Below are positions 7,101-41,322 of a DNA stretch of 42,961 bases, piece by piece. The notes under the pieces were generated by a model that was not told the DNA's origin, ran no database searches, and saw nothing but the letters and a program-made list of their open reading frames with translations. The position numbers and the translations under genes are program-made. This DNA is from an uncultured Methanosarcinales archaeon (GTDB lineage: Archaea; Nanobdellota; Nanobdellia; Woesearchaeales; ARS49): contig CAYHWM010000001.1 of the NCBI GenBank assembly GCA_964359925.1, forward strand, positions 1 through 42,961, given 5' to 3'. Numbering within the stretch: position 1 is the stretch's first letter; the number at the start of each line of letters is the position of its first letter.

Positions 7101-8812
7101 GCTTTGATGTACTCTTTTACTATACTATTTGGAGACTTCATCAAGAGAGGGCTTACGCTTTTCTCTCCTGATCGTTGAAGGAGTGTTGGTTCAATAGTCC
7201 AGATGAAACGTGACAATTCTCGTGAATAAACAGAGTACTCTTTTGCTGGAGTTCCTTGCTTTTTCCTTTTGGACACCGTTCTTTGAAAGAGTGTTTGAAC
7301 GAGTTTTTCAAAATCTTGAAGGAGTGCCTCGTCGACATTGGTAAGTCCGAGATATCCTCCTGCTGGAGTAATTCGAACGTGTCCATCGCCCGTGAGATAT
7401 CCGAGGAGTCTTGCCATATTCCCATCGAGTACGGGGGGATGTCTGCACTCTCGCCTGTTGTGTGCTTTCGAGGGAACAATAGTAGGAAGGGTTTGTGTCG
7501 TTCCTTCTACAGTTAATTTTGATAGTGTTGAAATATAGTCTCCGGGAACAAATTTTTCCGCAGGTTTCGCAAAGATGAGTCCTTGTTCCGTCGTAAAAAG
7601 AGGATGCTCTTTCGTTAATAACAATTCATGACCGGTGGCAGTTCGTATTCTGAGAAGTGTTTTCGGTGAGGGTCTTTTCCACACTCTCAATGGTCGCGAC
7701 GCGAGATTCTTCCCTTCGAGTCCAAGAGAGTACACTTTGGGAAGTTGCGATTGTTGTTCGTATCTGGTTATAAATTCTTTGATTGGAAGTATTTCTCCCG
7801 TATGGAGCACTATGAGGGAATCTCCTGCAACACACTTGCCTGCTCCCGGATCCCCGATAAGCAGAATATGAATGTCTCCTCTCGTTGCAGGTCCGAAGTC
7901 TGCCGTTTTTCTTACTCCTCCGAGGAGTTGTAAGATGAGCGCTTCTTTGATCGTGTCGTGGCCGTAAATGTTGGGAGCGATGCTTTGTAAGAGTCGTTGT
8001 GCAATGTTTGGGTCTTTGACGAGTTCTTTGATTTCTTTTTCTTCTTCTTCACTGATTTGGATATCTGTGAAATCCTCGTCGACTGGCATGACGTGATTTG
8101 CTTCGAAGAGGAGGTCGAATCTTGTGCTTTGAACTCCTGTTTTGAGAATGATGGGAACTTCTTTGAGAGTTCCTGTGACTCGAATAGTCGCTCCGGGATT
8201 CGTTCTTTTCTCAGTGATGGGACTGACGAGCTCGTTCTGAAGGAAAATATTAATTCTTTTTGGTTGCGCTCCTCCTTCTAACTGTTCTGGTATTTCTTCG
8301 AGTACTATTCCTTGAGCGTCGACGAGTTGTTTGCTTAAGAGGTGGAATCTTCCTTTGCGGCCACACGTGCATCGTGATGGTTCTTTGAACTTCGTGTCTA
8401 CTTGGATGACGCTGATAGTGTTGCCACAGCTTGGACACTCGAAACTGGCGCTTGTTACTTGAGGACGAACATCTGATTTTTGACGAACAACGCCTTCAAG
8501 CTGGAAGAATTTATTCAGGTGCTTGCTACGTATGTTTCTGACGAGTACGGAAGCTGTTGGTGGAAGGTTTTTTACTCTGACGACGAAATCTTTTGCTTGC
8601 TCATCATACTGTGCGAGCGCGAGTTGTGCTGCTTTGAGAGAATTTTCTGGCTGGTCGAGTAGTGCATCTACCAGTTCCAGGTTGAATTTTGCGAGCTCTC
8701 CAAAATCTATGACTATTTGCTTGTCCCCTGTTCTCACGTGCTCATGAATTTCGTTGTAGTATGTCTTCTCGAGAAATTCTGCGTAGAGTCTGACGTGCTC
8801 GGAAGCGTTCAT
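4142..8812 (-). CDS. mcm: MCM replicative helicase precursor carrying two inteins (mature extein about 669 aa)
   Basis: It has the N-terminal OB/zinc motif (CPSCGN...CTCG). The Walker A GDPGAGK|S is split by intein 1. The Walker B ALVLA..GVC|CIDELDKM is split by intein 2. Downstream are the sensor/arginine-finger region (ANPKHGRF, FDLIF) and a C-terminal wHTH. Confidence 0.95.
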   Translation of the reverse strand: MNASEHVRLYAEFLEKTYYNEIHEHVRTGDKQIVIDFGELAKFNLELVDALLDQPENSLKAAQLALAQYDEQAKDFVVRVKNLPPTASVLVRNIRSKHLNKFFQLEGVVRQKSDVRPQVTSASFECPSCGNTISVIQVDTKFKEPSRCTCGRKGRFHLLSKQLVDAQGIVLEEIPEQLEGGAQPKRINIFLQNELVSPITEKRTNPGATIRVTGTLKEVPIILKTGVQSTRFDLLFEANHVMPVDEDFTDIQISEEEEKEIKELVKDPNIAQRLLQSIAPNIYGHDTIKEALILQLLGGVRKTADFGPATRGDIHILLIGDPGAGKCVAGDSLIVLHTGEILPIKEFITRYEQQSQLPKVYSLGLEGKNLASRPLRVWKRPSPKTLLRIRTATGHELLLTKEHPLFTTEQGLIFAKPAEKFVPGDYISTLSKLTVEGTTQTLPTIVPSKAHNRRECRHPPVLDGNMARLLGYLTGDGHVRITPAGGYLGLTNVDEALLQDFEKLVQTLFQRTVSKRKKQGTPAKEYSVYSRELSRFIWTIEPTLLQRSGEKSVSPLLMKSPNSIVKEYIKALYDCEGHVVKTKREIEFSTKSKLLAEQLRILLLRYGIYSQLSSAQKCATNTKLKIKRTYYRLRITGENVARYAQEIGFTSPEKKATLEKVMSRGTSYNTNINVVPHMKTLLSTLRRKYALSQFSLPILRSTCQHYEKGDRNPSRNKLKKLSEFYNALAPQDPLVSILSQASSSDIFWDKIVSVQEEPSSEEHVYDLEIDQIHNFVANGIMIHNSQLLKRISKVAPKARFISGKGVSGAGLTASVVKDEFLGGWSLEAGALVLASRGVCCTTGDSSFLCEDGRKMTFDNLFANSRSAIVYPTFKIFALNTATKKIEPFSIKCAFRKKNDKKIYELITRTGRVLALTEENEVLTCKQSQQIWTPIEQLRVGEYVAVPKTLPVEGQDTYDERFAYIAGLLASDGSVQLNNRHGKAGFYNTDESLIKLFQKILDGLGHTHSTSLRPAGRVSFIDGKPVHSKKPLYYTYNSTKRFVNEVLSFGIPNGEKSMTQALDKRIVMYSSKTIASFLRGVFDGDGSIRENPYEVTITTGILENARLFQELFLRLGIISSVKRSTRSWHCDIRGVQSVQDFFHIVGTSHPEKKKRFNTISTKEEKDRLNILPNHQEFFESFLKHYRGKLGVSRFKYFWQYAKKKTAPSLYKLSLLNKSLDDFVLQQHFQSHVLWDKIVSLRERKDIEYVYDFTMKGTNNFIANNVIMHNCIDELDKMGKDDTAAMHEALEGQTITISKANVQATLRAETTVLAAANPKHGRFDNFAPVGSQIDLPPTLINRFDLIFPIKDLPEKEKDEKTSSFILSLHQKGSKSQGDIDTPLLRKYITYCRQRVRPVLTDAAIAEIQQYYLSMRASGSGGKVKSVPISARQLEALVRLSEAAAKLRLSEKVLKKDAQTAVRLVDYFLRQVALDEETGKIDIDKLSTGVSASQRSRIIQVKEIVAELEATFQKVIPLENIISSAEAKGITKSDAEEIIQKLKRTGDLFEPKRGFISRI
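5009..6295 (-). other. intein 2 (429 aa, with LAGLIDADG homing endonuclease) inserted in the MCM Walker B
   Basis: It begins CTTGDSSFLC after ...ASRGVC and ends FIANNVIMHN, followed by extein CIDELDKM. The LAGLIDADG blocks are YIAGLLASDGSV and FLRGVFDGDGSI. The N-terminal boundary is ambiguous by one Cys codon (6295 or 6298). Confidence 0.9.
6461..7834 (-). other. intein 1 (458 aa, with LAGLIDADG homing endonuclease) inserted in the MCM P-loop
   Basis: It begins with Cys (CVAGDSLIVL) directly after GDPGAGK and ends VANGIMIHN, followed by extein Ser. The LAGLIDADG blocks are LLGYLTGDGHV and YIKALYDCEGHV. Coordinates were computed from residue positions 327-784 and checked against the codons. 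Confidence 0.9.
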
Positions 8813-9655: not shown

Positions 9656-10975
9656 ATGACGTACGATATCGTTTTAGGAAGGTCTCCTCAAGAGAAAGCG
9701 AAGATGGGATTGAGGGGAGCAGTGTTTCTTGGTAAGTTATACGTTCAGATGGGTACGACGACGAGTCTTTCAAACCCTGTGTATCTCGACGTGAATACGA
9801 GCCACGTCATGTTTATTTGTGGTAAAAGAGGTTCTGGTAAGTCGTACGCGATGTCTGCCATTGTTGAAGGAGTCATCGACCTCCCTCCAGACCTGAAAGA
9901 GAATATTGCTGTCGTTATGCTTGACACGATGGGAGTGTTCTGGACGATGAAATACCCCAACGGAAGAGATGAAGCAATGTTGAAAGAGTGGGGTTTGGAA
10001 CCGAGAGGGTTGGACGTGAAAGTGTACACTCCGAAGGGAGTGTTTGACATATCAAAAGAAAAAGGAGTCCCCGTCGATAAACCTTTCTCACTCAAACCTT
10101 CAGAACTCAACGGCGAAGATTGGAATATTGCTTTCGAGATTGAGAATAATTCTCCACTCGGAGTCTTCATAGAGATGGTTCTTCTTGAATTAAAAGAAAA
10201 AATGGCCGACTACGACATCATCGACATTCTGAAAGAGATTGATGAAGCGAAGGGCGAGGAGTACATTAAGATCGCCGCAAAGAACAGATTTATAGCGGTG
10301 CAACACTGGGGATTGTTCGACAAGGAAGGAACTCCCATTAGCGAATTAATAAAAGGCGGTCAAGCGACTATTTTAGATTTGAGTGAGTACGCTACGATGC
10401 CGAACGGTTGGCAGGTTCGTTTTCTCGTCGTCGGCCTCGTATCAAAGAAATTGTTCTTGCAACGTATGACTGCGAGGAAAACAGAAGAGTTAGAAGCGGT
10501 AAAAACGTCAGTGCACGTCATCGCTCCTGATGTGAAAGAAGCGAGGATGCCTATGGTATGGCTCGTTCTTGACGAAGCTCACGAGTTCCTTCCACGAGAA
10601 GGGAAGACTGCGTCGTCAGAAGCACTCATCACTATCTTGCGTGAAGGTCGTCAACCAGGGATTAGTTTAATCCTCGCTACGCAACAACCGGGTAAGATTC
10701 ATACTGACGTGATGACTCAGAGCGACATCTTCTTGAGCTTACGTCTCACCGCGAGAATGGATGTCGAAGCTCTTTCCTCACTCACTCAAAGCTATCTCAG
10801 AGACGGGGTCGCGACCGCTCTCGACCACCTCCCAAGAGTTTCCGGCTCGGCCATCGTTCTCGACGATAAGAACGAGCGACTCTACACGATGAAAATAAGA
10901 CCAAAAATATCGTGGCACGGCGGTTCCGCACCAACACTCTTCAAAACGGAGAAGAGCGTGTTTTCGTTCGAGTAG
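9656..10975 (+). CDS. HerA/FtsK-like P-loop ATPase (DUF87-type)
   Basis: It has Walker A CGKRGSGKSY, Walker B VWLVLDEAHEF and LILATQQP. The start is trimmed to the ATG at 9656 (MTYDIVLGR), which lies 22-33 nt downstream of TTTTTATAAAGG (9623-9634), giving leaderless geometry. Confidence 0.8.
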   Translation: MTYDIVLGRSPQEKAKMGLRGAVFLGKLYVQMGTTTSLSNPVYLDVNTSHVMFICGKRGSGKSYAMSAIVEGVIDLPPDLKENIAVVMLDTMGVFWTMKYPNGRDEAMLKEWGLEPRGLDVKVYTPKGVFDISKEKGVPVDKPFSLKPSELNGEDWNIAFEIENNSPLGVFIEMVLLELKEKMADYDIIDILKEIDEAKGEEYIKIAAKNRFIAVQHWGLFDKEGTPISELIKGGQATILDLSEYATMPNGWQVRFLVVGLVSKKLFLQRMTARKTEELEAVKTSVHVIAPDVKEARMPMVWLVLDEAHEFLPREGKTASSEALITILREGRQPGISLILATQQPGKIHTDVMTQSDIFLSLRLTARMDVEALSSLTQSYLRDGVATALDHLPRVSGSAIVLDDKNERLYTMKIRPKISWHGGSAPTLFKTEKSVFSFE

Positions 10976-11011
10976 AGGTGTAGGAAATAGGTGATAGAAG
11001 TCAAGCTGTGG
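10976..11011 (+). repeat. 7-nt periodic NNNRTAG/GTGG array starting at the stop codon of the ATPase gene
   Basis: After the TAG at 10973-10975, GTAG/ATAG/ATAG/.../GTGG cores end at 10983, 10990, 10997 and 11011, all in 7-nt phase. Confidence 0.5.
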
Positions 11012-11046
11012 AAGATTAAAAAAAAGGTCTGTAGAAAATAGTAATA

Positions 11047-11075
11047 CTCTCCACTAACTACAACCTACCTACTAC
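11047..11075 (-). repeat. 7-nt periodic array (CCAC/CTAC on plus, GTGG/GTAG in gene sense) abutting the stop of the small membrane gene
   Basis: Cores end at 11054, 11061, 11068 and 11075. The stop codon of the minus-strand ORF is at 11079-11081. Confidence 0.5.
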
Positions 11076-11078
11076 GAA

Positions 11079-11288
11079 CTATTCTCCTTTCTCCATTAAC
11101 ACGAGTACTGAGATAAAAATAATCACGCAAAGTAGTGCGAGTCCCGTCGCCCATCCTTTGCTGTATTGTGGAAGATAGAACGCGCTGAGGAGGAATCCCA
11201 TAATGCTGAGTGCGTACAGTGTTGAAGTAGTCATTCCTGTGGATGATGTTTTCGTTGACTGTTTCCCTTTTTTGTTTCTGGAAGCCAT
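11079..11288 (-). CDS. small two-TM membrane protein (69 aa)
   Basis: MASRNKKGKQSTK... is followed by two hydrophobic helices. ATTTATAAAC at 11311-11320 sits about 23-32 nt upstream of the ATG at 11288 (leaderless geometry). This favours this frame over the overlapping 78-aa ORF. Confidence 0.5.
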   Translation of the reverse strand: MASRNKKGKQSTKTSSTGMTTSTLYALSIMGFLLSAFYLPQYSKGWATGLALLCVIIFISVLVLMEKGE

Positions 11289-11399
11289 GCCCTCTACTCA
11301 TTTTCTTCGTTTATAAATCTGCCTTCCCGTAAGAGCGTTCTCGCCGGTTGAACACTACGAACTACTGTCTTACTCTTCGCAACTGATGAGTACTATTGT

Positions 11400-12716: not shown

Positions 12717-13038
12717 TGTTTTCTCCACACACGGTACAAGAAAGAGCTCGTTACCTTCTGGCAACAATAGCTACACTGATTGATCAACCCTGTTATGGGT
12801 TGGTGAACCCTTGATCTTGAAGTGTGATTAACGTTTTATTTTATTCTTTTATTGTTTTTTATTTTTTTTGATGATGTACTATGTTTGACTAAAATCGCCC
12901 GCTCCACTAACTCCTGCGCTCAATGCTCGAGTGAAGAACTTGGTAGCTTGTTCTTCTTCTCGTAAGCTCCCGTAGGTACTTTCGTGGCGGGCAATGATTG
13001 GTATTGTATGGACATATTTAAAGGTTGTGTGCATCAGC

Positions 13039-14124: not shown

Positions 14125-14393
14125 CTCATGGAAGGAGTTCGTAAGGGGTTGGTATAATGAGTCTCAGAATATCCTTTCAGACAACATCAGTTCGTACCAA
14201 GAGTTGTTCATGAATCATTCACGAGAAAAAAGTAATAAAGCAGTTTAAACTATGGTAGTTATACTATTATAATTTGTTCTCAAATTCGTTCTCAACAATA
14301 AAAAAGAAAATCTCAATATCTACGTTTCTACACATTCCAATTCTTCATCACACAACAACACGACACAATATCACTTACTACAACATACTACTT

Positions 14394-14436
14394 ATCATAT
14401 ATTATTTTCTATATATAAATATATTATTAATATATC
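14394..14436. other. AT-rich duplex unwinding element candidate
   Basis: atcatatattattttctatatataaatatattattaatatat is about 40 nt with only two C residues. It lies between the inverted ORB-like boxes. Confidence 0.55.
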
Positions 14437-14456
14437 CTTTCTCTCCTCCTCCCAAC

Positions 14457-14478
14457 TTCCACAAGAACTCAAGGGGTC
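14457..14478 (+). promoter_or_regulatory. ORB-like origin recognition box (right, plus orientation)
   Basis: TTCCACAAGAACTCAAGGGGTC is the inverted partner of 14103-14124. It lies 60 nt upstream of the orc1/cdc6 ATG. Confidence 0.6.
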
Positions 14479-14538
14479 TCCCTATACCTATTCCTGAGAA
14501 CAATAATACATTTAAACCTCCATTTCCTTTGGAACTAT

Positions 14539-15756
14539 ATGCCAGAAAAAGCACTTGATAATTTTTTCAACGAGTTCATTGAAAGAAAAGGAATATTTCT
14601 CGAGAAGAAAGCATTGCAATCATCATATACTCCTGATTCTATTCCTCATCGTGAAGAACAAATTAGTCAAGTAGCGAACATTCTTGCTCCTTGTCTTCGT
14701 CGTGAAAGACCCTCAAATCTCTTCGTGTACGGAAAGACTGGTTCTGGAAAAACTCTTACCATAAAACACGTTGTTGAAGGATTAAAGCGGGTAGCTCAAT
14801 CAAAAAGCATTCCTTTAGAAACATTATACTTAAATTGTAAACTGAAAAAAGTTGCAGATACTGAATATCGACTCATCGCTCAGCTCGCAAGAGATCTCGG
14901 ACAACCAATTCCTGCAACAGGACTTCCTACTGACGAAGTATATTCTTTCTTCTACAAAATTTTAGATTCCATGCCTCGAATAGTGCTTCTCATTCTCGAT
15001 GAGATAGACCAGCTTGCAGAAAAAACGAATGATCAACTATTATACAATCTGACTCGAGTAAATGCTGAATTAAAACAAGCACAATTAGCACTTGTAGGGA
15101 TATCCAACGACCCAAAATTTACGAGTCACCTTGACCCTCGGGTAAAAAGTTCCCTTTCGGAGGAAGAATTAGTATTTCCTCCTTATAACGCGTTGCAATT
15201 ACAAGAAATTCTTCATCAGAGAGCGTCGTTAGCATTTCACAAGTGTGCTCTTGCCGAAGGAGTGATAGAAAAATGTGCAGCGTATGCTGCTCGAGAACAT
15301 GGTGATGCTCGTAGAGCATTAGAATTATTGAGAGTTGCTGGAGAGCTCGCGGAAAGAGATAGACAATCAATAATTGCTCTCACTCACTTAGACGCTGCTG
15401 AGGAAAAAATAGATCACGACTCTATGATAGATATTGTGGCATCTCAACCATTGCAACACCAGTTAACATTGTTCGCAGTTCTTTCGCTCTGTAAGCAGAG
15501 CACTGACCCTATTTTTACAGGAGAAATTTATGAGTCTTACTCTACATTATGTACAAAGTGTGGTGTGCGGCCATTAACACAACGCAGAATATCCGATATT
15601 CTTGGAGAGTTTGACATGCTCGGATTACTGCAAGCACGCATTATTTCGAAGGGGAGATATGGTCGTACGAGAGAGATTCGTCCATCATTGCCTGTCGCTA
15701 CGGAAATAGAAGTGAGAAAAGTGTTGTGTGAATCGCTTTCACTGCCTCAAGGGTAA
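14539..15756 (+). CDS. cdc6: Orc1/Cdc6 replication initiator
   Basis: It has the YTPDSIPHREEQI N-terminal motif, Walker A YGKTGSGKT, Walker B LLILDEID, sensor GISND and a C-terminal winged helix. Confidence 0.95.
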   Translation: MPEKALDNFFNEFIERKGIFLEKKALQSSYTPDSIPHREEQISQVANILAPCLRRERPSNLFVYGKTGSGKTLTIKHVVEGLKRVAQSKSIPLETLYLNCKLKKVADTEYRLIAQLARDLGQPIPATGLPTDEVYSFFYKILDSMPRIVLLILDEIDQLAEKTNDQLLYNLTRVNAELKQAQLALVGISNDPKFTSHLDPRVKSSLSEEELVFPPYNALQLQEILHQRASLAFHKCALAEGVIEKCAAYAAREHGDARRALELLRVAGELAERDRQSIIALTHLDAAEEKIDHDSMIDIVASQPLQHQLTLFAVLSLCKQSTDPIFTGEIYESYSTLCTKCGVRPLTQRRISDILGEFDMLGLLQARIISKGRYGRTREIRPSLPVATEIEVRKVLCESLSLPQG

Positions 15757-20300: not shown

Positions 20301-20913
20301 TGATGATATGGCTTTCGATGTCGATATTGCTTGGGAGTATCCTTTAGAATTTTATGATGCTTGTTGTGCTTGGAAGATGCCTTGGGACGTGAAAATTCCT
20401 CAGATTAAGGGAACTCTCGGAACTGTTGCGCAGTACGAGGGCATGGGGTGTAGTCACGATGTTGAAGATATTAACGTGGGGGTGTTGTGTTCTGCGTACA
20501 AAACGTTGCCGACGATGGAGGACAAGCTGAAGGGGCAAATGGCTCTCGCGGTGAAGATTCGTGCAGTGAACGCGTCTGATGTTGCGCGTCTCGTTATCGA
20601 GAAACATTTCATTCGTGACACGAAGGGTAATCTTCGAAAGTTTTCTTCTCAAGAATTCCGTTGTGTTGATTGTAATGAGAAATTTCGTCGGCCTCCACTT
20701 TCTGGGAAGTGTAACGAGTGCGGAGGAAAACTTCTCTTCACTATTTCTGAGGGTTCGATCATAAAGTATTTTGAACCGATGCTTTCTCTCGCGAAGAAGT
20801 ACAAAGTTCCTGCCTATCTTCTCCAAAGCATTGAACTCTTGCAAGTGCGTATCGAAGGAGTCTTCGGACGGGACAAAGAAAAACAAGCAGGGTTAGGAGC
20901 GTGGTTCGGGTGA
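17380..20913 (+). CDS. DNA polymerase D (Pol II) large subunit DP2, no intein
   Basis: It is 1177 aa, with SRMGRPEKAKMRKMKG, the CSSCG...CHLCG and CVDCNEKF...CNECGG zinc clusters, and CRRDCDGDE catalytic-site-like acidic residues. Confidence 0.95.
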   Translation: MATSEIVASDRMKEYFGSVQGHIAKAHAIAVQARKKGLDPSEKVEIALAANMAERVVGLISVIAPQIVDSGVVERIKELEAQYGPLDWRVALKIAEEVAFQKFCKFSSKEEGIDIGVRTGFAYSTVGVVSSPLDGLVKIEIKKRLDGAGEYFCLHFAGPIRNAGGTNAAVCAILGDYVRKKMGYATYDATDDEAKRAVTELQDYHERVTNLQYVPSEAEVLFLVKHLPIEIGGDPSETINVSNYKDLPRIPTNQIRSGYCLLLSSCIPLKAPKLWKQLSKWGADFDLGDWNFLEEFLKIQKASKAHGAVVKKESKITPDYTYITDLVAGRPVFGHPLERGGFRLRYGRVRCSGYSAQAVHPATMLVLDRFLAIGTQLKSERPGKGAVFTTCDEIEGPIVKLVSGDVLLLQSIQKAKEVEKDIVEILFLGDVLISYGDFFNRAHVLVPPGYCEEWWVKEVEKECVARFGSVDAFKLSEECGIPVENVQSLLANALKVQPSCEESFALSKSLSVPLHPRFTYHYADVPVSDLALLRAWLCSGNQSRGENGLKIVLPFKEQPKRVLEVLGVPHQCRLGSFVVIEGGDALALSECLRLGNDSFVTPTTEVSLDWVSAVSPVRLRDKSGIYIGSRMGRPEKAKMRKMKGGAHGLFPVGKEGGRLRSLTEAIRVGKISADAPQYSCSSCGAVTVYGSCHLCGSSAVRSFWCEPCAKWLKEKSCERHGECALFKKQTIPSKEYFDQAMKLSKLLVPPDLVKGVRGTFNADHYLEHMTKSLLRAKYDINVNKDGTIRYDCSEFPLTHFRPKEVRTSVGKLVELGYSLDVDGVPLTRDDQLLEILPQDVILPACPESPNEPADKVLMSVASFVDDELEFMYGLPRWHNVKTSDDLVGHIIIALAPHTSAGLACRIIGFSKTQGFFSHPYVHAACRRDCDGDEIGFLLLMDGLLNFSRLFLPSSRGSTMDAPLVLTSLLNPSEVDDMAFDVDIAWEYPLEFYDACCAWKMPWDVKIPQIKGTLGTVAQYEGMGCSHDVEDINVGVLCSAYKTLPTMEDKLKGQMALAVKIRAVNASDVARLVIEKHFIRDTKGNLRKFSSQEFRCVDCNEKFRRPPLSGKCNECGGKLLFTISEGSIIKYFEPMLSLAKKYKVPAYLLQSIELLQVRIEGVFGRDKEKQAGLGAWFG

Positions 20914-20969
20914 AGTGTAGGAAGTAGTGGGTAGTGTGTGGGGAGTAGGAAGTGAAAAATGGAGAGTAA
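20914..20969 (+). repeat. 7-nt periodic NNNGTAG array starting at the base after the DP2 stop codon
   Basis: The sequence reads TGA|AGTGTAG|GAAGTAG|TGGGTAG|TGTGTGG|GGAGTAG|GAAGTGA|AAAATGG|AGAGTAA. The cores end at 20920, 20927, 20934, 20941, 20948, 20955, 20962 and 20969. Confidence 0.6.
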
Positions 20970-21033
20970 AAGATAACAAATATGACAAAAGGTATTTATA
21001 GGTGGAACATTCTCAAGTGATTGGTGATAACGT

Positions 21034-25959: not shown

Positions 25960-25982
25960 AACACAGTCACCTTATGTTTCAC

Positions 25983-26054
25983 TCTCTACCGCCTACTTCC
26001 CACCAGCAACTCCCCATTCCCTACCCCCCCCACGAGCCACTCCCTACGCATCAC
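25983..26054 (-). repeat. 7-nt periodic array (CTAC/CCAC on plus, GTAG/GTGG in RNase Z sense) overlapping the RNase Z stop
   Basis: Cores end at 25989, 25996, 26003, 26010, 26017 and 26024, then a 9-nt slip, then 26033, 26040, 26047 and 26054. The RNase Z stop is at 26051-26053. Confidence 0.6.
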
Positions 26055-27088
26055 TTCTTTTTTTTGAGAGTAACTCTTCTTCTCACTACTTTTCTTGATT
26101 CTTCTCTGTGTGCTTGTTCTTCGGGAGTTTCTTCATCGATGATGCGCTCTTCTCGCGCGTTCAATTCTTTTTTCTCTTCTTTTGTTTCTGGTGCTTTGTC
26201 GAGGTGTATTGTTTGGAAGTCTCGGGCGATGAACGTTCTCGGGTGTATTCTGCTTGCTTCTTCCAGTATTGGTGTCGTGTTGGCGTATCGTGAGCTGATG
26301 TGGAACAGGTAGAGGTCTCGTACTCCGCTTTTGCTTGCTAAGAGTCCTGCTTGTTGTGCTGTGAGGTGGTTGTACTCTACTGCTTTCTCTTCGTCAGATT
26401 GGAGGAATGAGCTTTCTGAGATGAGGACGTCTGCTCGTTCTGCGAGAGTGTAGCAAGCATTGCATAATTTCGTGTCGGTCACGTACGCTACTTTTCTTGC
26501 TGGTGACGTGATGCTTACTTCTTCAGGTTTGATAGTGTTGCCGTTGTGAGTGATTGTTTGACCATTTTGTAGTTTTCCTATGAGTGGGCCTACAGGGATT
26601 CTTAGCGCGTGGATTTTTTCCATCAAGATGTGCCTCGTTGGCTTGACGGTGAACGAGTACCCGTTACAGGGTGTGTTGTGATCGAGCGCTTGTGACTCTA
26701 TCTTGTACTCTTCATTTTCGTAAATGATCCCGTTTGATACTTCGTGGATGACGAGTTGTACTTTGAACTTGAATGGTATCGCTTTGAATAAGTGATAGAA
26801 TCGTTCTTTGCTTCCTGGTGGTCCGTACAGGTCGAGTGTTCCTTGGTATTCTGAGGCTCCCATTGTTTGAATGAGTCCCGCAATGCCGAGTGCGTGGTCT
26901 CCGTGCCAGTGGCTGAGCAATATTTTTGTGATCTTCGTCATCTTAACGTTTGCTAATTTTATTTGTCGTTGTGTTCCTTCTCCACAATCGAACAGTATTC
27001 CTTGGTCTTTGTACGTCAAAAGGACTGCTGGGTGATTGCGTTCTTTCGTGGGAGCCATGCATGCTGTTCCGAGGAAGAGGATATCCAT
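26051..27088 (-). CDS. rnz: ribonuclease Z (tRNA 3' endonuclease) with a charged C-terminal tail
   Basis: It has the MDILFLGT N-terminus, the metallo-beta-lactamase motif LLSHWHGDHALG and a C-terminal HIS motif. The last approximately 55 aa are highly Lys/Glu-rich. Confidence 0.9.
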   Translation of the reverse strand: MDILFLGTACMAPTKERNHPAVLLTYKDQGILFDCGEGTQRQIKLANVKMTKITKILLSHWHGDHALGIAGLIQTMGASEYQGTLDLYGPPGSKERFYHLFKAIPFKFKVQLVIHEVSNGIIYENEEYKIESQALDHNTPCNGYSFTVKPTRHILMEKIHALRIPVGPLIGKLQNGQTITHNGNTIKPEEVSITSPARKVAYVTDTKLCNACYTLAERADVLISESSFLQSDEEKAVEYNHLTAQQAGLLASKSGVRDLYLFHISSRYANTTPILEEASRIHPRTFIARDFQTIHLDKAPETKEEKKELNAREERIIDEETPEEQAHREESRKVVRRRVTLKKKK

Positions 27089-33513: not shown

Positions 33514-33561
33514 ACTGTGAAGAGAACAATTATTTGTTTATATAGATTTAGTTACTCAAAT

Positions 33562-33680
33562 GGTAGTTGGTGGTCTTGTAGCTTGTAGTAGGTAGTTTGT
33601 GGTTTGTAGCTCGTAGGTTTCTACTTCCCACCTTCTACCTTCCACTTCCTACCTCCCACTCCCTACTGGCTACTCCCCAC
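33562..33680. repeat. 17-unit heptanucleotide array: 8 x NNNGT(A/G)G then 9 x NNNC(T/C)AC
   Basis: GTAG/GTGG cores end at 33566, 33573, 33581, 33588, 33595, 33602, 33609 and 33616. CTAC/CCAC cores end at 33624, 33631, 33638, 33645, 33652, 33659, 33666, 33673 and 33680 with strict 7-nt spacing. The right arm ends 2 nt from the endA stop (33683-33685). Confidence 0.7.
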
Positions 33681-33682
33681 GT

Positions 33683-34231
33683 TTACAACTTCATCCATCT
33701 TGATTCCCAGTAGCTTACGCTTCCTTCGTCGTCAACGACTGCTATGAGTAGTCTTTTCTTCGTGGAGTGTGCTACTCGATTCTTTGCGGAGTACTCGTGC
33801 CATGAGAATGTGGATCCTTCTCGTACGACGAAGACTACCCATTTTGAGTGCTCAGCACCAGGGGTTGTTCCTCTGTCGTATACTCTGAAGTTTCCTCCGA
33901 ATTTGAGTGCTGTCTTCACGGTGAAACCTCTTGATCGTAAGTCGGTGAAGACTGCTGAGTGGTTAACGAAATCGTGATCTTGACGGGAGCATTTTTTCCT
34001 CAATTCGTGCAATGACAATTTTTTGTTTTTCCCATCAAGTACTACTATTTTTTCTTTCTCGACAAGGTAGAAAGCTTCGAGTAATGATAGTCGTACTCTT
34101 CCATCGGAGAGTTCTGTTCCGAATCTTCCTTCTTTGGAGAGTGCGAGTGCTTCTGGAGAGTTTTCTGTAACGACTCCTACTTGATCCCACCACGATTGTA
34201 CTGGTTTCGTCATAGGTGGTGAACCATTCAA
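33683..34231 (-). CDS. endA: tRNA-splicing endonuclease EndA (short, homotetramer-type length)
   Basis: LSLLEAFYLVEKEKI...AVFTDLRSRGFTVKTALKFGGNFRVYDRG...HSKWVVFVV...RVAHSTKKRLLIAVV matches the EndA catalytic domain. Confidence 0.85.
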   Translation of the reverse strand: MNGSPPMTKPVQSWWDQVGVVTENSPEALALSKEGRFGTELSDGRVRLSLLEAFYLVEKEKIVVLDGKNKKLSLHELRKKCSRQDHDFVNHSAVFTDLRSRGFTVKTALKFGGNFRVYDRGTTPGAEHSKWVVFVVREGSTFSWHEYSAKNRVAHSTKKRLLIAVVDDEGSVSYWESRWMKL

Positions 34232-35910: not shown

Positions 35911-35994
35911 GCAGGGTTGCCGGAGTGGCCAAACGGGGTAGACTCAAGATCTACTGGCTTAGCGCCTACGCAGGTTCGAATCCTGCATCCTGCA
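35911..35994 (+). tRNA. tRNA-Leu (anticodon CAA), class II with long variable arm
   Basis: GCAGGGT-TG-CCG-GAGTGGCCAAA-CGG-G-GTAGA-CTCAAGA-TCTAC-TGGCTTAGCGCCTAC-GCAGG-TTCGAAT-CCTGC-ATCCTGC-A. All stems pair, with one G:U in the acceptor. Confidence 0.9.
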
Positions 35995-36080
35995 TATGGT
36001 ATTGCGTATGATATTTCCTGCATTGTGGGTTTTTGTTTTTGGAGGTGTTGGTTTTTGAAGTTGTTTTCAACCGAAGGTTG

Positions 36081-36109
36081 ACGCATATTCGAATCCTGCA
36101 TCCTGCATA
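36081..36109 (+). repeat. direct repeat of the tRNA-Leu 3' end (att-like)
   Basis: TTCGAATCCTGCATCCTGCATA at 36088-36109 is identical to 35975-35996. The extended match is 27/29 with 35968-35996. The GG to TA change destroys the T-stem, so this is not a second tRNA. Confidence 0.75.
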
Positions 36110-36113
36110 CGTT

Positions 36114-37295
36114 ATGGCAAGACATACTCTCTCATCTCAAACTCATTTACAGTACCTTCACTACACTCGCACAGTACTCTTGGCAGATGAGAGAGTATCG
36201 CCAGCACGAAGAGAGAAGCTCGCTCAAAAGATTGTGACGTATGCTGAAAAACGGCACATTCAGAATCTTTCCGAGTTGCACGAAAACATTGATTACTTTC
36301 TCGATGGTGGAAAGTTTCGACAACGTCACATTGCAGGAAATAACACATTCACGTTTGAACACCCCATCGGGGAGGATGGTGATGAAGAGTTCGGAGACCT
36401 TTTGAAAGACGATACAGTTCCTCAACCGTTAGACACTCTCGCCCTTCGAGAACAAACATTCTTGAGTGGAAAAGAAGTACTCGAACAAATCTGTGAGAAC
36501 ACCCCTGACGTTCGACCAATTGCAAACATTCTTCTCGCTTCCGAAAGGGACACTGTTGTTGATGCTGAAAAGGTCGACATTGCAGGGATGGTTCATAGTT
36601 TGAGAGCTTCACTTTCTCGAGTTCAAAACGGGAAACTTCTCACCCCAAAGAAAAACATCGTCACCATAGCGTTCACTCCCGAAGGAGTTCGTTTCGTGTA
36701 CCGCCGAGGATATGATGATGAGAGAGTGAACGCAGTTATTGATGGATACTTTCAAGGAACATCCCCAAAAATTCTCGCTGAAAAAGTAGGAGTGTATGAG
36801 GGAACAGTACGTGAATGGTTGTACCAGAAACTCAACCTTCCAAGATATTCTTGTATGCAAACAGAGTTACTACGAAGAAGAATAGTTGCATTGTTTGATG
36901 AGGGAAAAGAAGTAAAGGAAGTTGCCAATGATCTCGGAGTAGTCTCACAATACGTCCAAAAAATTCTTACGTTGGAAGGAAGACGTCTCGGCGCTCAAGG
37001 CCCTGCTCCGTGGATTTATGAACTCTCCGGAAGTGTGAAAACAGTTGCTGAATTAGTATGCGTGACGAAAGAACACTGCACTTTATGGGCTCACGAGATG
37101 AAGAACTTGAAAAAAGCTTTCTGTTACCTTCGAGATTTTGAACGACGCCATCATCGTGGCCCAAGCAGAGATGAAGTATGCCACGCAACGGGTACAGATC
37201 CTTGGCACCACTTTCAAAGACTCGTTGAGCAAGGAATACTTTCAAAAAAGAAAATTTCAAAAAGGGAGTACATTCGACAATACGAAACGTGGTAG
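36114..37295 (+). CDS. hypothetical multi-HTH DNA-binding protein (accessory/mobile-element-like)
   Basis: The start is trimmed to the ATG at 36114 because the track's N-terminus reads through the tRNA-derived repeat. The HTH-like segments are ILAEKVGVYEGTVREWLYQ, EVANDLGVVSQYVQKIL and RDEVCHATGTDPWHHFQRLVEQGIL. Confidence 0.55.
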   Translation: MARHTLSSQTHLQYLHYTRTVLLADERVSPARREKLAQKIVTYAEKRHIQNLSELHENIDYFLDGGKFRQRHIAGNNTFTFEHPIGEDGDEEFGDLLKDDTVPQPLDTLALREQTFLSGKEVLEQICENTPDVRPIANILLASERDTVVDAEKVDIAGMVHSLRASLSRVQNGKLLTPKKNIVTIAFTPEGVRFVYRRGYDDERVNAVIDGYFQGTSPKILAEKVGVYEGTVREWLYQKLNLPRYSCMQTELLRRRIVALFDEGKEVKEVANDLGVVSQYVQKILTLEGRRLGAQGPAPWIYELSGSVKTVAELVCVTKEHCTLWAHEMKNLKKAFCYLRDFERRHHRGPSRDEVCHATGTDPWHHFQRLVEQGILSKKKISKREYIRQYETW

Positions 37296-37313: not shown

Positions 37314-37445
37314 TCACCCTCGCACTCTCTCCGCCGTCACTTTGTAGCTTTTTCCGCAGTACACGCACGTTTTTCTTCCGAGCTTGTTTTTTTGTGGTTG
37401 GTAGAGCATCGTGTTTCCGCAGTGTGGGCATTGTAGTTTGATCAT
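37314..37445 (-). CDS. unannotated small zinc-ribbon protein (43 aa)
   Basis: MIKLQCPHCGNTMLYQPQKNKLGRKTCVYCGKSYKVTAERVRG* has two CxxC pairs. Its ATG overlaps the TGA of the upstream BRO-N gene as ATGA (37442-37445), suggesting translational coupling. Confidence 0.5.
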   Translation of the reverse strand: MIKLQCPHCGNTMLYQPQKNKLGRKTCVYCGKSYKVTAERVRG

Positions 37446-38281
37446 TGGTGTTCCATTCTTTTCTTTTTTTTCATATCAAGAAAGTTCTCGTTTGAAACTA
37501 TTGATTTCTTTGTTTCGCTTTCGAGTTCTGATCTTGCATTGTGTGCTATTCTTCCGCCTACTCGTGCCGAGTCTTCACACTCTTTAAAACCTTGAGAATC
37601 CCTCACTTTTGTTATGTCAGTCGTTGCTTTTTCTCCTATCATTGTGAAGATGAGTTCCCAATCATTCATGTGGTCTCTTAAGTTTTCGTTCTTCTTCTGC
37701 AATCCCTTGAACTCCTTGTATTCCTGAACTGTTTTCCCAAACGTTGCTTTGCTGATCTCGTTCGTGAGGATAGCAAACTCTTTTTCTTCTCCAACTTTTC
37801 TCTCTTTCCATTCATCAGTTAATTCTTGGCGTATTACTATGCCTCGTAAACGTTTTTCTATCCAGTCTTTTGGGTATCCTTTTAGTTCGTAGTATGTTCT
37901 TACTCTGTCTTGTGCGAGTTCAGGGTTTTGTATTTCTTGAACACGATCATGCCCAACTCTTGCGAGCCACAGTTTGAACGGTTCGGCTTTCGGCGATGGT
38001 ATTGACTGGATGATTCTGAACATTGTTTCAACAGTCGCACAATCAGTTTCATAGTATTTACCATCAGAAGCAGGCATTTTCAGTTGGTTACATTTTGTAA
38101 CCACCTCACTTCCATCCTCAAGAAGTCTATGTTTAAGTACCTTCCAATAGGTTCTTTGATTAGCACTCTCAGTAAGTACTCCGATAATATCTACAACTGA
38201 ATACCACCACTCTCCGTTATGGAACAGTCGTCGAATTCCTTTTCCTTCAAAAACAACAAGCGCGTTCTCTTTTTCAACCAT
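37442..38281 (-). CDS. BRO-N domain protein (DinD / prophage antirepressor-like)
   Basis: The N-terminal IRRLFHNGEWWYSVVDIIGVLTES...YWKVLK is a Bro-N signature. The C-terminal region resembles DinD-type proteins. TATATAAATG at 38303-38312 lies 22-31 nt upstream of the ATG. Confidence 0.8.
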   Translation of the reverse strand: MVEKENALVVFEGKGIRRLFHNGEWWYSVVDIIGVLTESANQRTYWKVLKHRLLEDGSEVVTKCNQLKMPASDGKYYETDCATVETMFRIIQSIPSPKAEPFKLWLARVGHDRVQEIQNPELAQDRVRTYYELKGYPKDWIEKRLRGIVIRQELTDEWKERKVGEEKEFAILTNEISKATFGKTVQEYKEFKGLQKKNENLRDHMNDWELIFTMIGEKATTDITKVRDSQGFKECEDSARVGGRIAHNARSELESETKKSIVSNENFLDMKKKKRMEHQ

Positions 38282-40202: not shown

Positions 40203-40736
40203 ATGGTTGAACTATTCGGATTTTTGAAAAAGAAAGAATCGTCAGAGCTTCCTGAAGCACCGCAAGCTCCGAGTGATTCGTTCTTTGGTGATATCCCTTC
40301 TGTTCGGGGTTCTGAAGTTTTTCAACGATTCTCGTTACCTGACGTTCCTTCGCCTCAACAAGTTTCGCAATCGCCCCCTGTTCCTACTCCTCCGGTTCCT
40401 GCTCCAATTCAACAGTCCACTCCACAATCTACTATCGATTCTCTACCCTCCACACCTCAAGTTTCTCGTTCTTCATCTCGTCGACCTGTTGGCCCGTTGT
40501 TCGTCAGCGTGAATGACTACCAAGAAGCGTTAGAGCACGCGTCTGCGGTTTCAAGAGCGGTGGAAGAAAGTGTTGCTATAGCGAAGCGTTTGGATGTTCT
40601 TTCTGATGCTGTGGAGCACTCGTTATCGTCGTGGAGTGCACAATTGACTGACATCGAGAAGAAGTTATCGTTTGCTGATGAAATTATTGAGAAAACAGGT
40701 GAGGCGCCAGAATGGAAAGAAAACCAGTCTTCATAA
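40203..40736 (+). CDS. coiled-coil protein, paralog 1 (amphipathic N-terminus, Pro-rich linker, conserved C-terminal core)
   Basis: MVELFGFLKKK is followed by a P/S/Q-rich linker. The core is PLFVSVNDYQEALEHA...RLDVLSDAVEHSLSSWSAQLTDIEKKL. Confidence 0.65.
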   Translation: MVELFGFLKKKESSELPEAPQAPSDSFFGDIPSVRGSEVFQRFSLPDVPSPQQVSQSPPVPTPPVPAPIQQSTPQSTIDSLPSTPQVSRSSSRRPVGPLFVSVNDYQEALEHASAVSRAVEESVAIAKRLDVLSDAVEHSLSSWSAQLTDIEKKLSFADEIIEKTGEAPEWKENQSS

Positions 40737-40933
40737 AAATCACGGAGTACAATGACCTCTTGGACGTTCTCGCGCTTGCGAGGAGCAAGTTGCAACAAGC
40801 GAAAACGTTGCACTCGAGATTGTCCGAGTTGAACAAGGAAGAGGAGGAACAAGTAGCACGATGGGAAGAACAATTGTCGCTCGCAGAAAAGAACTTGGAA
40901 GAGTTGGACGAAACGCTCGCAAGACCACAGTAG
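40712..40933 (+). CDS. coiled-coil protein, paralog 2 (core only, 73 aa)
   Basis: PVFIKITEYNDLLDVL...RLSELNKEEEEQVARWEEQLSLAEKNL aligns position by position with the paralog 1 core. It starts 25 nt inside paralog 1 in another frame. Confidence 0.6.
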   Translation: MERKPVFIKITEYNDLLDVLALARSKLQQAKTLHSRLSELNKEEEEQVARWEEQLSLAEKNLEELDETLARPQ

Positions 40934-40953
40934 GAAAGTCTACGAAAAAGCAA

Positions 40954-41322
40954 GTGGTCAAGCACGAACACGTAAGCCACGAACCGCTCTATATGTCTCT
41001 CGATGATCCTGCTTCTGCTCGTAAGAAGTTATTACTCTCAAGCAAAATACTCCTCGAACTTCTCGGGCAACAAGGGTCACTTCAACAACGTCGCTTAGAA
41101 AAAAAGAAAGTTCTCAACCAGTTCACGAGAACGAGGAAAGAACTCCAACAATTATTAGTAAAACTTCATGAGTTCTTGCCTCACAGAAACATTCAACTCC
41201 GTTCCACTCCACAACCAACCGTTGACTCCCTTCCCGCAACAGCTTCGAAGAAAGAAAAAGTGTCCGCCCTCTCCTCAGAACTCTCCCGCATCGACGAAGC
41301 ATTAGGAATGTTAAAGGAGTAA
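40954..41322 (+). CDS. coiled-coil protein, paralog 3 (divergent)
   Basis: EPLYMSLDDPASARKKLLLSSKILLELL...KELQQLLVKLHEFL resembles the paralog core. The track start (ATG 40861) would overlap paralog 2 by 73 nt. The GTG at 40954 keeps the conserved motif without overlap. The start is uncertain. Confidence 0.5.
   Translation: MVKHEHVSHEPLYMSLDDPASARKKLLLSSKILLELLGQQGSLQQRRLEKKKVLNQFTRTRKELQQLLVKLHEFLPHRNIQLRSTPQPTVDSLPATASKKEKVSALSSELSRIDEALGMLKE

Follow-up and report, generated by a model that had tools for sequence, protein, structure and literature searches.

Degenerate seven-nucleotide GTRG arrays at gene ends of a DPANN archaeon, a possible counterpart of bacterial heptamer repeats

Dispersed heptanucleotide repeats include the STRR heptamers of cyanobacteria, among other families. 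In Xanthomonas and Nostoc, G-rich heptamers (GGGNATC and GGGGA(C/T)T) lie between co-directional open reading frames (ORFs), 0–50 bp past the stop on the coding strand and in some cases overlapping it, or, in an alternative placement, upstream of ORFs on the non-coding strand; their unit number varies and most of them are transcribed (Rehm et al., PMC4692102). The TAACTGA repeats of Beggiatoaceae, cyanobacteria and Bacteroidetes have stops in all frames and hence overlap ORF ends by no more than 18 nt (MacGregor, PMC4679880). As summarized in the latter paper, Mrazek (2007) found heptanucleotide repeats to be the most abundant long simple sequence repeats (LSSRs) in most prokaryotic genomes and ascribed them to polymerase slippage. 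Here we describe six arrays of seven-nucleotide units with the core GTRG (CYAC on the opposite strand) at gene ends of a DPANN (Woesearchaeota-like) archaeon from groundwater; the DNA analysed, called the window below, was the whole of contig CAYHWM010000001.1 (42,961 bp, 43.9% GC).

Short cores at a fixed spacing are also known from protein-binding arrays. TRAP sites hold 9–11 copies of (G/U)AG with 2–3-nt spacers, the ParG tetramer-box arrays of TP228 are related to the heptads of pSM19035, and the REP/BIME elements of enterobacteria, ~35-nt palindromes that form real hairpins, are another dispersed extragenic family. The hut leader RNA contains three XAG motifs with 4-nt spacers, in two sets, which are bound by hexameric HutP (PMC2425495). 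The ribbon-helix-helix (RHH) protein omega/ParB of pSM19035 needs at least four contiguous 7-bp heptads in direct or inverted orientation (PMC9499535), and SegB, an RHH protein of archaea, has multiple binding sites on the chromosome (bioRxiv 10.1101/2025.02.07.637068).

The window was searched mechanically for chains of GTRG or CYAC at exactly 7-nt spacing. Strict chains of nine units (33621–33680, − strand), six units (33578–33616, +), five units (20917–20948, +) and four units (11051–11075, −) were found, together with two chains of three units each (25986–26003 and 26030–26047, −), whereas no chain of three or more units appeared in 200 dinucleotide-preserving shuffles of the window. The motif co-occurred 30 times at lag 7, 22 times at lag 14 and 20 times at lag 21, against ~4.7 times at other lags; counts at lags 5 and 6 were at background in the window, so that a TRAP-like period of 5–6 nt was not seen. 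TRF reported a period of 7/14 at 33563–33666. The 7-nt GTRG/CYAC periodicity described in an earlier note on this DNA, which had been made by reading the letters, was thus borne out by the chain search, the shuffles, the lag counts and TRF. All strict chains are intergenic, and the six arrays occupy four intergenic regions, start 0–49 nt from an ORF boundary and are carried by five of the ~44 genes of the window. The survey of the host genome covers this one 43-kb contig, and extension through its terminal genes gave ~0.5 kb more. The arrays were also present in ENA assemblies of Hainich H52 groundwater and in several Logan assemblies of other runs; these independent assemblies of the same population reproduce them, and the heptad arrays are not assembly artefacts, which the note had named as a concern.

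The longest block follows endA. The array in the sense of endA (33621–33680, −) starts 2 nt past the stop codon (TAA, 33683–33685) and comprises nine perfect units: GTGGGGA GTAGCCA GTAGGGA GTGGGAG GTAGGAA GTGGAAG GTAGAAG GTGGGAA GTAGAAA. Four bases, GTTT, separate it from an inverted array with T-rich spacers (33563–33616, +), whose eight GTRG units stand at 33563, 33570 and, after an 8-nt step, 33578–33616 (GTAGTTG GTGGTCT(T) GTAGCTT GTAGTAG GTAGTTT GTGGTTT GTAGCTC GTAG). The 17-unit block is therefore as previously described, with nine perfectly spaced CYAC units and an inverted eight-unit array, apart from the one 8-nt step. It sits between the endA stop and the TATA-like box of the next same-strand gene. 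The inverted array is antisense to both neighbouring genes, and at its 5′ end it comes to within 49 nt of where a 320-aa gene starts, just upstream of that gene’s TATA box. The box (33537–33545, −; TTTATATAG on the + strand, CTATATAAA on the − strand) is outside the repeat, ~28 nt upstream of the ATG (33513), and is the putative promoter of the 320-aa gene.

The PolD DP2 array (20910–20979, +) begins with a unit 0, GTGA, that holds the stop codon, followed by five perfect units (20917–20948) and four decaying ones (GTGA, ATGG, GTAA, ATAA). The array between RNase Z and Hjc (25972–26054, −) has ~12 units, with the stop again held by a GTGA unit 0 and a 2-nt phase slip within a G8 run (26025–26032). 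It is probably intercistronic, because the Shine-Dalgarno (SD) sequence AAGGTGA and the Hjc ATG follow it directly with no TATA box between. The RNase Z gene itself encodes a 49-aa K/E-rich C-terminal extension (26054–26200, −) that is absent from the 296-aa orthologue of the syntenic relative L121; the A/G-rich DNA coding for it has an A8 run directly before the stop and continues into the heptad array. The array of a small membrane gene (11041–11082, −) reads ATAG, which holds the stop, then GTAG GTAG GTAG GTGG GTAT with T-rich spacers; it follows a 69-aa gene (11079–11288, −), and a T8 run lies 53 nt after the stop. Facing it is the convergent array of the HerA-like ATPase gene (10972–11011, +), which is degenerate: GTAG (holding the stop), an 8-nt step, then GTAG ATAG ATAG TCAA GTGG. 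With three perfect units counting the stop, one 8-nt step and one broken unit, it would be weak evidence alone. On the sense strand of the upstream gene, both inverted pairs read (GTRG RRR)n, gap, (CYAC RRR)m.

The list of loci given by the note was sustained in the strict chains at DP2, the small gene, RNase Z and endA; the HerA array proved degenerate, and the run reported after dnaG was at chance level. That run (11355–11373, −), which lies ~25 nt past the stop and consists of two GTAG 7 nt apart and a GTAA after an 8-nt step, contains a single lag-7 pair, within the background of ~4.7 per lag, and was excluded. A further period-7 match at 40418–40455 is a coding P/S/T-rich motif that mimics a CYAC run, and it was not counted as a member of the family. 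The two ORFs that have this motif in common, ‘STPQ(S/P)T(I/V)DSLP’ (40416–40457 and 41203–41244), lack family matches (40203–40736 and 40861–41322) and appear from their sequences to be paralogues.

When the 51 units were aligned by phase alone, the core positions counted 43 G, 50 T, 50 purines (32 A, 18 G) and 42 G, and the three spacer positions carried 0.13–0.16 bits each. Every unit differs, and it is the GTRG core that the six arrays have in common; near-identical units, by which LSSR and STRR families are recognized, were not found among them, G-T-R-G alone being kept. The GTRG strand is poor in C (17 of 357 bases, 5%), and its spacers contain 51 G against 16 C (p = 2e-5). Spacers are purine-rich after endA, DP2, RNase Z and HerA, and T-rich in the 33563–33616 and small-gene arrays, so that the SD-like character that the note had often seen in the spacers applies to the former group and fails for the latter. 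The edges of the arrays decay by G>A changes (GTGA, ATGG, GTAA, ATAA). GTGG, which contains no stop triplet, accounts for 18 of the 51 units (35%).

The stop codon forms the in-phase unit 0 for DP2 and RNase Z (GTGA in both) and for the small gene (ATAG); it is out of phase by +1 for HerA and by −1 for endA, i.e. it is in phase in three of five arrays (p ~0.02). Five of the six arrays run in the sense of the gene just ended, starting 0–3 nt after its stop, and the sixth (33563–33616), on the non-coding strand, starts 49 nt upstream of a start codon; this 5:1 orientation bias alone is not significant. A non-triplet repeat with TAG/TGA-like triplets in all three frames is confined outside ORFs, and because no ORF can read through three units of a (GTAG N3)n array in sense orientation, the arrays adjoin the stop or take it in and extend to the next promoter or SD sequence. 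Stop adjacency and phase are thus largely a matter of geometry. Of the earlier proposal that the arrays start at stop codons in sense orientation, the description stands (intergenic, directly 3′ of stops, five of six in sense), but much of the adjacency follows from geometry and the orientation bias, taken alone, is not significant. A G precedes the stop in 17 of 44 window genes (39%) and so is not special to the array genes; GT(A/G)(A/G) seeds are therefore common in the window.

A second endA allele (L126, L127) has seven units instead of nine (GTGGGAA GTGGTCA GTAGGAG GTAGGAA GTGGCCA GTGGAAA GTAGAAA). The two alleles differ by ~6 substitutions, all at spacer or R positions and none at the G, T, G core, while the flanking 2.4 kb differ by ~0.25% and the inverted array 33563–33616 is identical in both. 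The RNase Z array is identical in seven population contigs save for L132, where one core shows G>T, and L134, which has G6 for G8 and thereby regains an unbroken 7-nt phase over ~12 units. Judged from the sequences, this G8/G6 difference (26025–26032) could be a real length polymorphism or a homopolymer assembly error. The DP2 array and the small-gene array are each identical in two other assemblies, and the HerA array is invariant in the few contigs compared. Copy-number polymorphism between close strains was accordingly seen at endA, with the other arrays essentially invariant in 2–7 contigs.

One database entry is identical to the endA protein, and the matches ranking after it, ~60% identical, are labelled Woesearchaeota or Nanoarchaeota by their sources. 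For comparison we used ~100 kb from six related lineages (49–63% protein identity, partly syntenic); a metagenome scan with the FEN1 protein gave five loci, which served as negative relatives only. In the ~100 kb neither a chain of three or more units nor a lag-7 excess was found, and a general lag-7 self-similarity scan of the relatives returned no heptad array of another core, AT-rich low complexity being all that it detected. The spacer between endA and the next gene is 32–62 nt long in the relatives versus 169 nt in the window. In L121 (62% endA identity), the orthologous spacer (10529–10590) reads CCAC TAA CCAC TAG ACAT TAA CTAC, a four-unit mini-array that directly precedes the TATA box of the orthologue (316 aa) of the 320-aa gene. 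It is the sole trace of heptads outside the host species among the relatives compared, and it suggests that the promoter-proximal array is the oldest. Because the relatives are otherwise without arrays, the family is a recent, lineage-specific expansion. The note had proposed comparing orthologous gene ends and had regarded absence or hypervariability in close relatives as a sign of neutral microsatellites; with arrays absent from the ~100 kb of relatives and unit number varying at endA, the outcome leans towards the microsatellite side.

For single arrays as RNA, the predicted folding energies range from 0 (the DP2 array) to −5 kcal/mol, and shuffled sequences fold equally well or better. The 17-unit endA block, by contrast with these, is predicted to form a ladder hairpin of 4–6-bp stems between 3×3 purine loops, at −42 kcal/mol (z −2.8) in the window allele and −41.8 kcal/mol (z −4.3) for the double block of the seven-unit allele. 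Predicted pairing of the convergent HerA and small-gene arrays was no better than that of shuffles. Since the single arrays are unstructured and this second pair folds no better than shuffles, the hairpin was rejected as a common denominator; on these predictions it would be a local by-product of convergent arrays, not a common property. The note’s statement that the cores form no stable hairpin is correct for single arrays and does not extend to the inverted block. Similarly, its statement that T-runs are lacking agrees with the lack of any run of five or more T, as in archaeal intrinsic terminators, inside the arrays, although a T8 run does follow the small-membrane-gene array; several non-array genes have T6–T7 within 3 nt of the stop. 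With G-quadruplex energies included in ViennaRNA, a three-tetrad quadruplex was predicted in the RNase Z array alone (G8-UA-GGG-AAU-GGGG), and such a structure was rejected for all the others; the arrays do not have a G3 tract in each unit. Rfam 15 gave no family match to the arrays, either at the gathering threshold or at E ≤ 1.

The note had known of no described element with this form, but heptamer families at bacterial gene ends have been published (PMC4692102, PMC4679880), and all six arrays of the window obey the positional rule of the Xanthomonas and Nostoc heptamers (PMC4692102). When 185,579 species genomes were scanned for six GTRG units placed 7 nt apart, at least 120 loci were returned, all those counted being bacterial; the scan is uninformative on archaeal distribution. 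Nearly all of the matches listed are near-perfect microsatellites, usually with 1–2 distinct units out of six. Among them, most lie at gene 3′ ends, in 27 convergent versus four divergent contexts, and tandem gene pairs show no strand bias (14 versus 12); as TAG-bearing arrays truncate any ORF, real or spurious, these context counts are crude and give a qualitative parallel only. Some of the bacterial loci, for example L035 6400–6560 (a Pyrinomonadaceae metagenome-assembled genome) and L098 1830–1990, have the layout of the endA block, namely stop-(GTAGACA)n-60 nt-(CTACTGT)n-RBS-ATG. The inverted GTAGACA pairs of these two loci flank a 60–70-bp G+C-rich core, and both have a GTAGGAA variant unit at the matching position.

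We favour the reading, with a probability of about 0.42 for the combined statement, that the arrays are slippage-born heptad repeats of the post-stop space that have been kept as a periodic protein-binding platform. By their sequence they would be an archaeal, degenerate counterpart of the dispersed heptamer LSSRs of bacteria. The origin by slippage in the post-stop untranslated stretch is the best-supported layer, in that the tandem structure and the strain difference are observed and slippage is deduced from them; of the options offered by the note, minisatellites generated by slippage and seeded at gene ends agree best with the two-unit strain difference and with the lack of arrays in the ~100 kb of relatives. 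Replication slippage right after a stop codon would create the arrays and alter their length, and they would spread through the post-stop space up to the next promoter or SD sequence, absorbing or abutting the stop. As for the second layer, we infer that the repeats persist because an oligomeric protein uses them as a multivalent, periodic platform: the G, T, R and G positions are preserved beside free spacers, and C is scarce on the GTRG strand, which is also unstructured by prediction. Binding would most likely take place on the transcript (3′ untranslated region (UTR) or intercistronic RNA), much as HutP and TRAP bind their triplet-repeat sites, and the bound protein would influence 3′-end fate or stability; RNA is favoured over duplex DNA because the GTRG strand is C-poor, unstructured and sense-biased. 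Where arrays converge, in the endA block and in the HerA and small-gene pair, the GURG and CYAC cores could in addition pair into a ladder hairpin.

Several points weigh against a binding platform. The conservation of the core is partly an ascertainment effect, because the arrays were recognized by GTRG, and transition- and strand-biased mutation together with this recognition bias can account for part of the pattern, namely why T is retained, why C is depleted and why A and G are interchangeable; the level of G at positions 1 and 4 (~84%), next to purine spacer positions near 50/50, is not easily explained in this way. The substitutions between the endA strains are mostly G<->A transitions, and their avoidance of G1 and G4 reaches only p ~0.03–0.13. 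One array is antisense to both of its neighbours. A cis-element that is needed would usually be conserved in relatives, and the arrays are not; nor does the A/G freedom at position 3 fit the A-G-specific pockets of HutP and TRAP. Pfam and NCBIfam scans of the 43-kb window revealed no HutP-, TRAP- or RHH-like protein. The two ~320-aa proteins encoded downstream of arrays were considered as binders and set aside; they are mutually unrelated and have no family or PDB match.

The arrays could instead be neutral or nearly neutral heptanucleotide microsatellites, tolerated only after stops and with no sequence-specific function, their GTRG ‘core’ being a product of seeding by stop heptamers (G-TAG/G-TGA plus 3 nt), transition-dominated, strand-biased mutation and the mode of recognition. 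This account fits the lineage specificity, with no chains in the ~100 kb of relatives, the unit number that differs between co-occurring strains, the G>A decay at the array edges, as at microsatellite borders, and the stop in phase as unit 0 in three of five; seeds are common as well, with G before 39% of window stops, and the bacterial arrays listed lie mostly at 3′ ends (27 versus 4) without strand bias in tandem pairs (14 versus 12). We regard it as a serious rival, somewhat less probable than the binding platform. Uniform drift away from a single heptamer could not leave T in 50 of 51 units, or G at positions 1 and 4 in ~84% of them, beside near-random spacers, nor is a single core at six separate arrays expected, one of which (33563–33616) does not adjoin a stop. 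Four of the five arrays are invariant across 2–7 population contigs (the exceptions at RNase Z being L132 and L134), and every unit differs here against 1–2 distinct units out of six in the listed bacterial arrays. A role as duplex-DNA heptads, bound cooperatively by a small protein on the model of RHH omega/ParB and serving as centromere-like, nucleoid-organizing or operator sites near the origin, strikes us as unlikely. The design of the units (a box of 4 bp and a variable spacer, recurring every 7 bp), runs of 4–12 contiguous units and direct plus inverted arrangements at two loci would all suit such binding, as would the parallels in the parS heptads of pSM19035 (PMC9499535) and in SegB (bioRxiv 10.1101/2025.02.07.637068); moreover, all arrays lie within 20 kb of orc1/cdc6 (14539–15756) in a replication-gene island with ScpB, the sole array with a counterpart in a distant relative is directly upstream of a promoter, and rapid co-evolution of centromere and binding protein would explain the lineage specificity. 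What duplex binding leaves unexplained is the strand asymmetry of the spacers (G 51 versus C 16; C 5%), the sense bias and the stop phase. The omega heptads are conserved at all seven positions, no RHH or ParA gene was found in the window, and clustering near the origin is not assessable from one contig.

Two further functions seem improbable, the second even more than the first. Ladder hairpins of convergent arrays might act as 3′-end stabilizers or as factor-independent terminators replacing oligo-T: the endA block reaches ~−42 kcal/mol in both alleles (z −2.8 and −4.3), both inverted pairs follow the (GTRG RRR)n ... (CYAC RRR)m scheme on the sense strand of the upstream gene, and the array genes have no T-run directly after the stop, where some others have T6–T7 within 3 nt. 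The DP2 and RNase Z arrays, however, are partnerless and unstructured, the HerA and small-gene pair does no better than shuffles, the spacers are not complementary, the RNase Z array lies within an apparent operon directly before the Hjc SD sequence, and a T8 run of its own follows the array of the small gene. A three-frame translational backstop, which the note had suggested, would make use of 7 mod 3 = 1, by which TAG/TGA occur in every frame and could catch read-through or frameshifted ribosomes. Its attractions are the stop-like T-R-R core, the stop in phase with the array and the slippery A8 run with which RNase Z ends just before its stop. The idea is weakened by the 18 of 51 units that are GTGG and hold no stop, by the excess length (three units are enough, and the arrays have 6–12), by the one array that is antisense and away from a stop, and by the relatives, whose corresponding genes have no arrays, as is also the case for all but five of the ~44 window genes.

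The contig that carries the arrays is an island of replication and information-processing genes according to profile and family scans of its ORFs. Replication is represented by MCM with two inteins, DnaG, Orc1/Cdc6, PolD DP1 and DP2, PCNA and FEN1, and the other genes include TBP, the HerA-like ATPase, TrmB, aIF2-beta, TFE, Hjc, RNase Z, endA and ScpB, together with a TYW2-like methyltransferase and an RNase J-like beta-CASP nuclease. The MCM helicase ORF (4142–8812, −) encodes 1556 aa and is apparently interrupted by two inteins, with NCBIfam intein N- and C-terminal splicing regions and an MCM match in three stretches. A probable replication origin adjoins orc1/cdc6 at 12768–13038 and 14145–14538; these intergenic regions are AT-rich, with ATATATTATTA repeats at 14397–14435 and a 36-nt T-rich tract at 12834–12869, and L121 has a 557-bp AT-rich spacer (2090–2646) beside its cdc6. 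Two tRNA genes were the sole Rfam matches in the window (Rfam 15). The 3′ end of tRNA-Leu(CAA) (35911–35994) is duplicated (35968–36005) with 87% identity 113 nt downstream at 36081–36118, where the copy directly precedes an HTH_23/transposase-like ORF, followed by a BRO-N-domain ORF (37442–38281). An element that had integrated at the tRNA gene may have left the duplication and the neighbouring ORFs as its remnant.

To our knowledge, the stop- and strand-linked placement of bacterial heptamer repeats has been documented and never explained. In the archaeal arrays, which keep four of seven positions, the constrained part, the phased G-T-R-G, can be told apart from mere repetition, and the degenerate core yields a defined probe, (NNNGTRG)n as RNA or duplex, e.g. 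(GGAAGUAG/GGAAGUGG)n RNA, with which a binding partner could be sought in a DPANN organism whose genome is small. A bolder version of the favoured reading, which we hold only tentatively, is that the heptads are an undescribed archaeal cis-element, a multivalent docking array for an oligomeric protein whose number of sites is tuned by slippage. At the RNA level, a ring- or filament-forming RNA-binding protein would mark 3′ UTRs and intercistronic RNA; at the DNA level, an RHH-type protein would use the origin-proximal heptads as chromosomal centromere-like sites. If a binding partner exists, the arrays would represent a new post-transcriptional gene-end mark in archaea or a new chromosomal type of heptad centromere, and the RNA version, if true, would give DPANN archaea their first TRAP/HutP-like system. 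Should no partner exist, the arrays would be a clean natural case of geometry shaping microsatellite placement, in which all-frame stops bar the repeat from ORFs, and would also show mutation bias mimicking a motif.

Among described systems, REP/BIME elements are similar in lying just downstream of stops and in convergent intergenic regions, and REPs affect mRNA 3′ ends, but REPs are not 7-nt-phased tandem arrays. The heptads of pSM19035 resemble the window arrays in their contiguous 7-bp units (7–10 present), in their direct and inverted arrangement next to promoters and in a CAC-type core close to CYAC; the window arrays, with 4–12 units and inverted pairs at 33563–33680 and 10972–11082, attain the minimum of four contiguous heptads required by omega. 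They differ in that the whole pSM19035 heptad (WATCACW) is conserved and stands upstream of specific promoters, not after stops, and a strand-asymmetric spacer composition would not be expected there. The SegB motif (TCTAGA S TCTAGA) was also compared and does not match the heptads.

HutP and TRAP sites have short cores, a fixed short period, free spacers and unstructured single-stranded RNA in common with the arrays, and the HutP sites in particular have a period of exactly 7 nt and UAG as preferred core. In other respects the window arrays differ from HutP-type sites: the latter depend on both A and G of the triplet, and UGG makes up 35% of the window units (18 of 51); HutP and TRAP sites serve antiterminator control in the 5′ leaders of single operons, where the HutP motifs form two sets of three that flank a terminator, whereas the window arrays lie 3′ of unrelated genes without a terminator stem and reach 9–12 units. 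The closest match is with the bacterial heptamer LSSRs. Both consist of tandem 7-nt units, with one unit family at many intergenic loci, enriched between co-directional or convergent genes; in both, unit number varies between strains, no link to mobile elements is apparent and stops in all frames keep the repeats at ORF edges. In the one contig surveyed, the tandem units are beyond chance and occupy dispersed non-coding loci biased to 3′ ends. Unlike the bacterial families, the window arrays belong to an archaeal (DPANN) host, keep four of seven positions with every unit differing, have no regular G3 tracts and come in two spacer flavours, purine-rich and T-rich. Dispersed heptamer families at bacterial gene ends were thus already known, and what is new here is their degenerate archaeal form.

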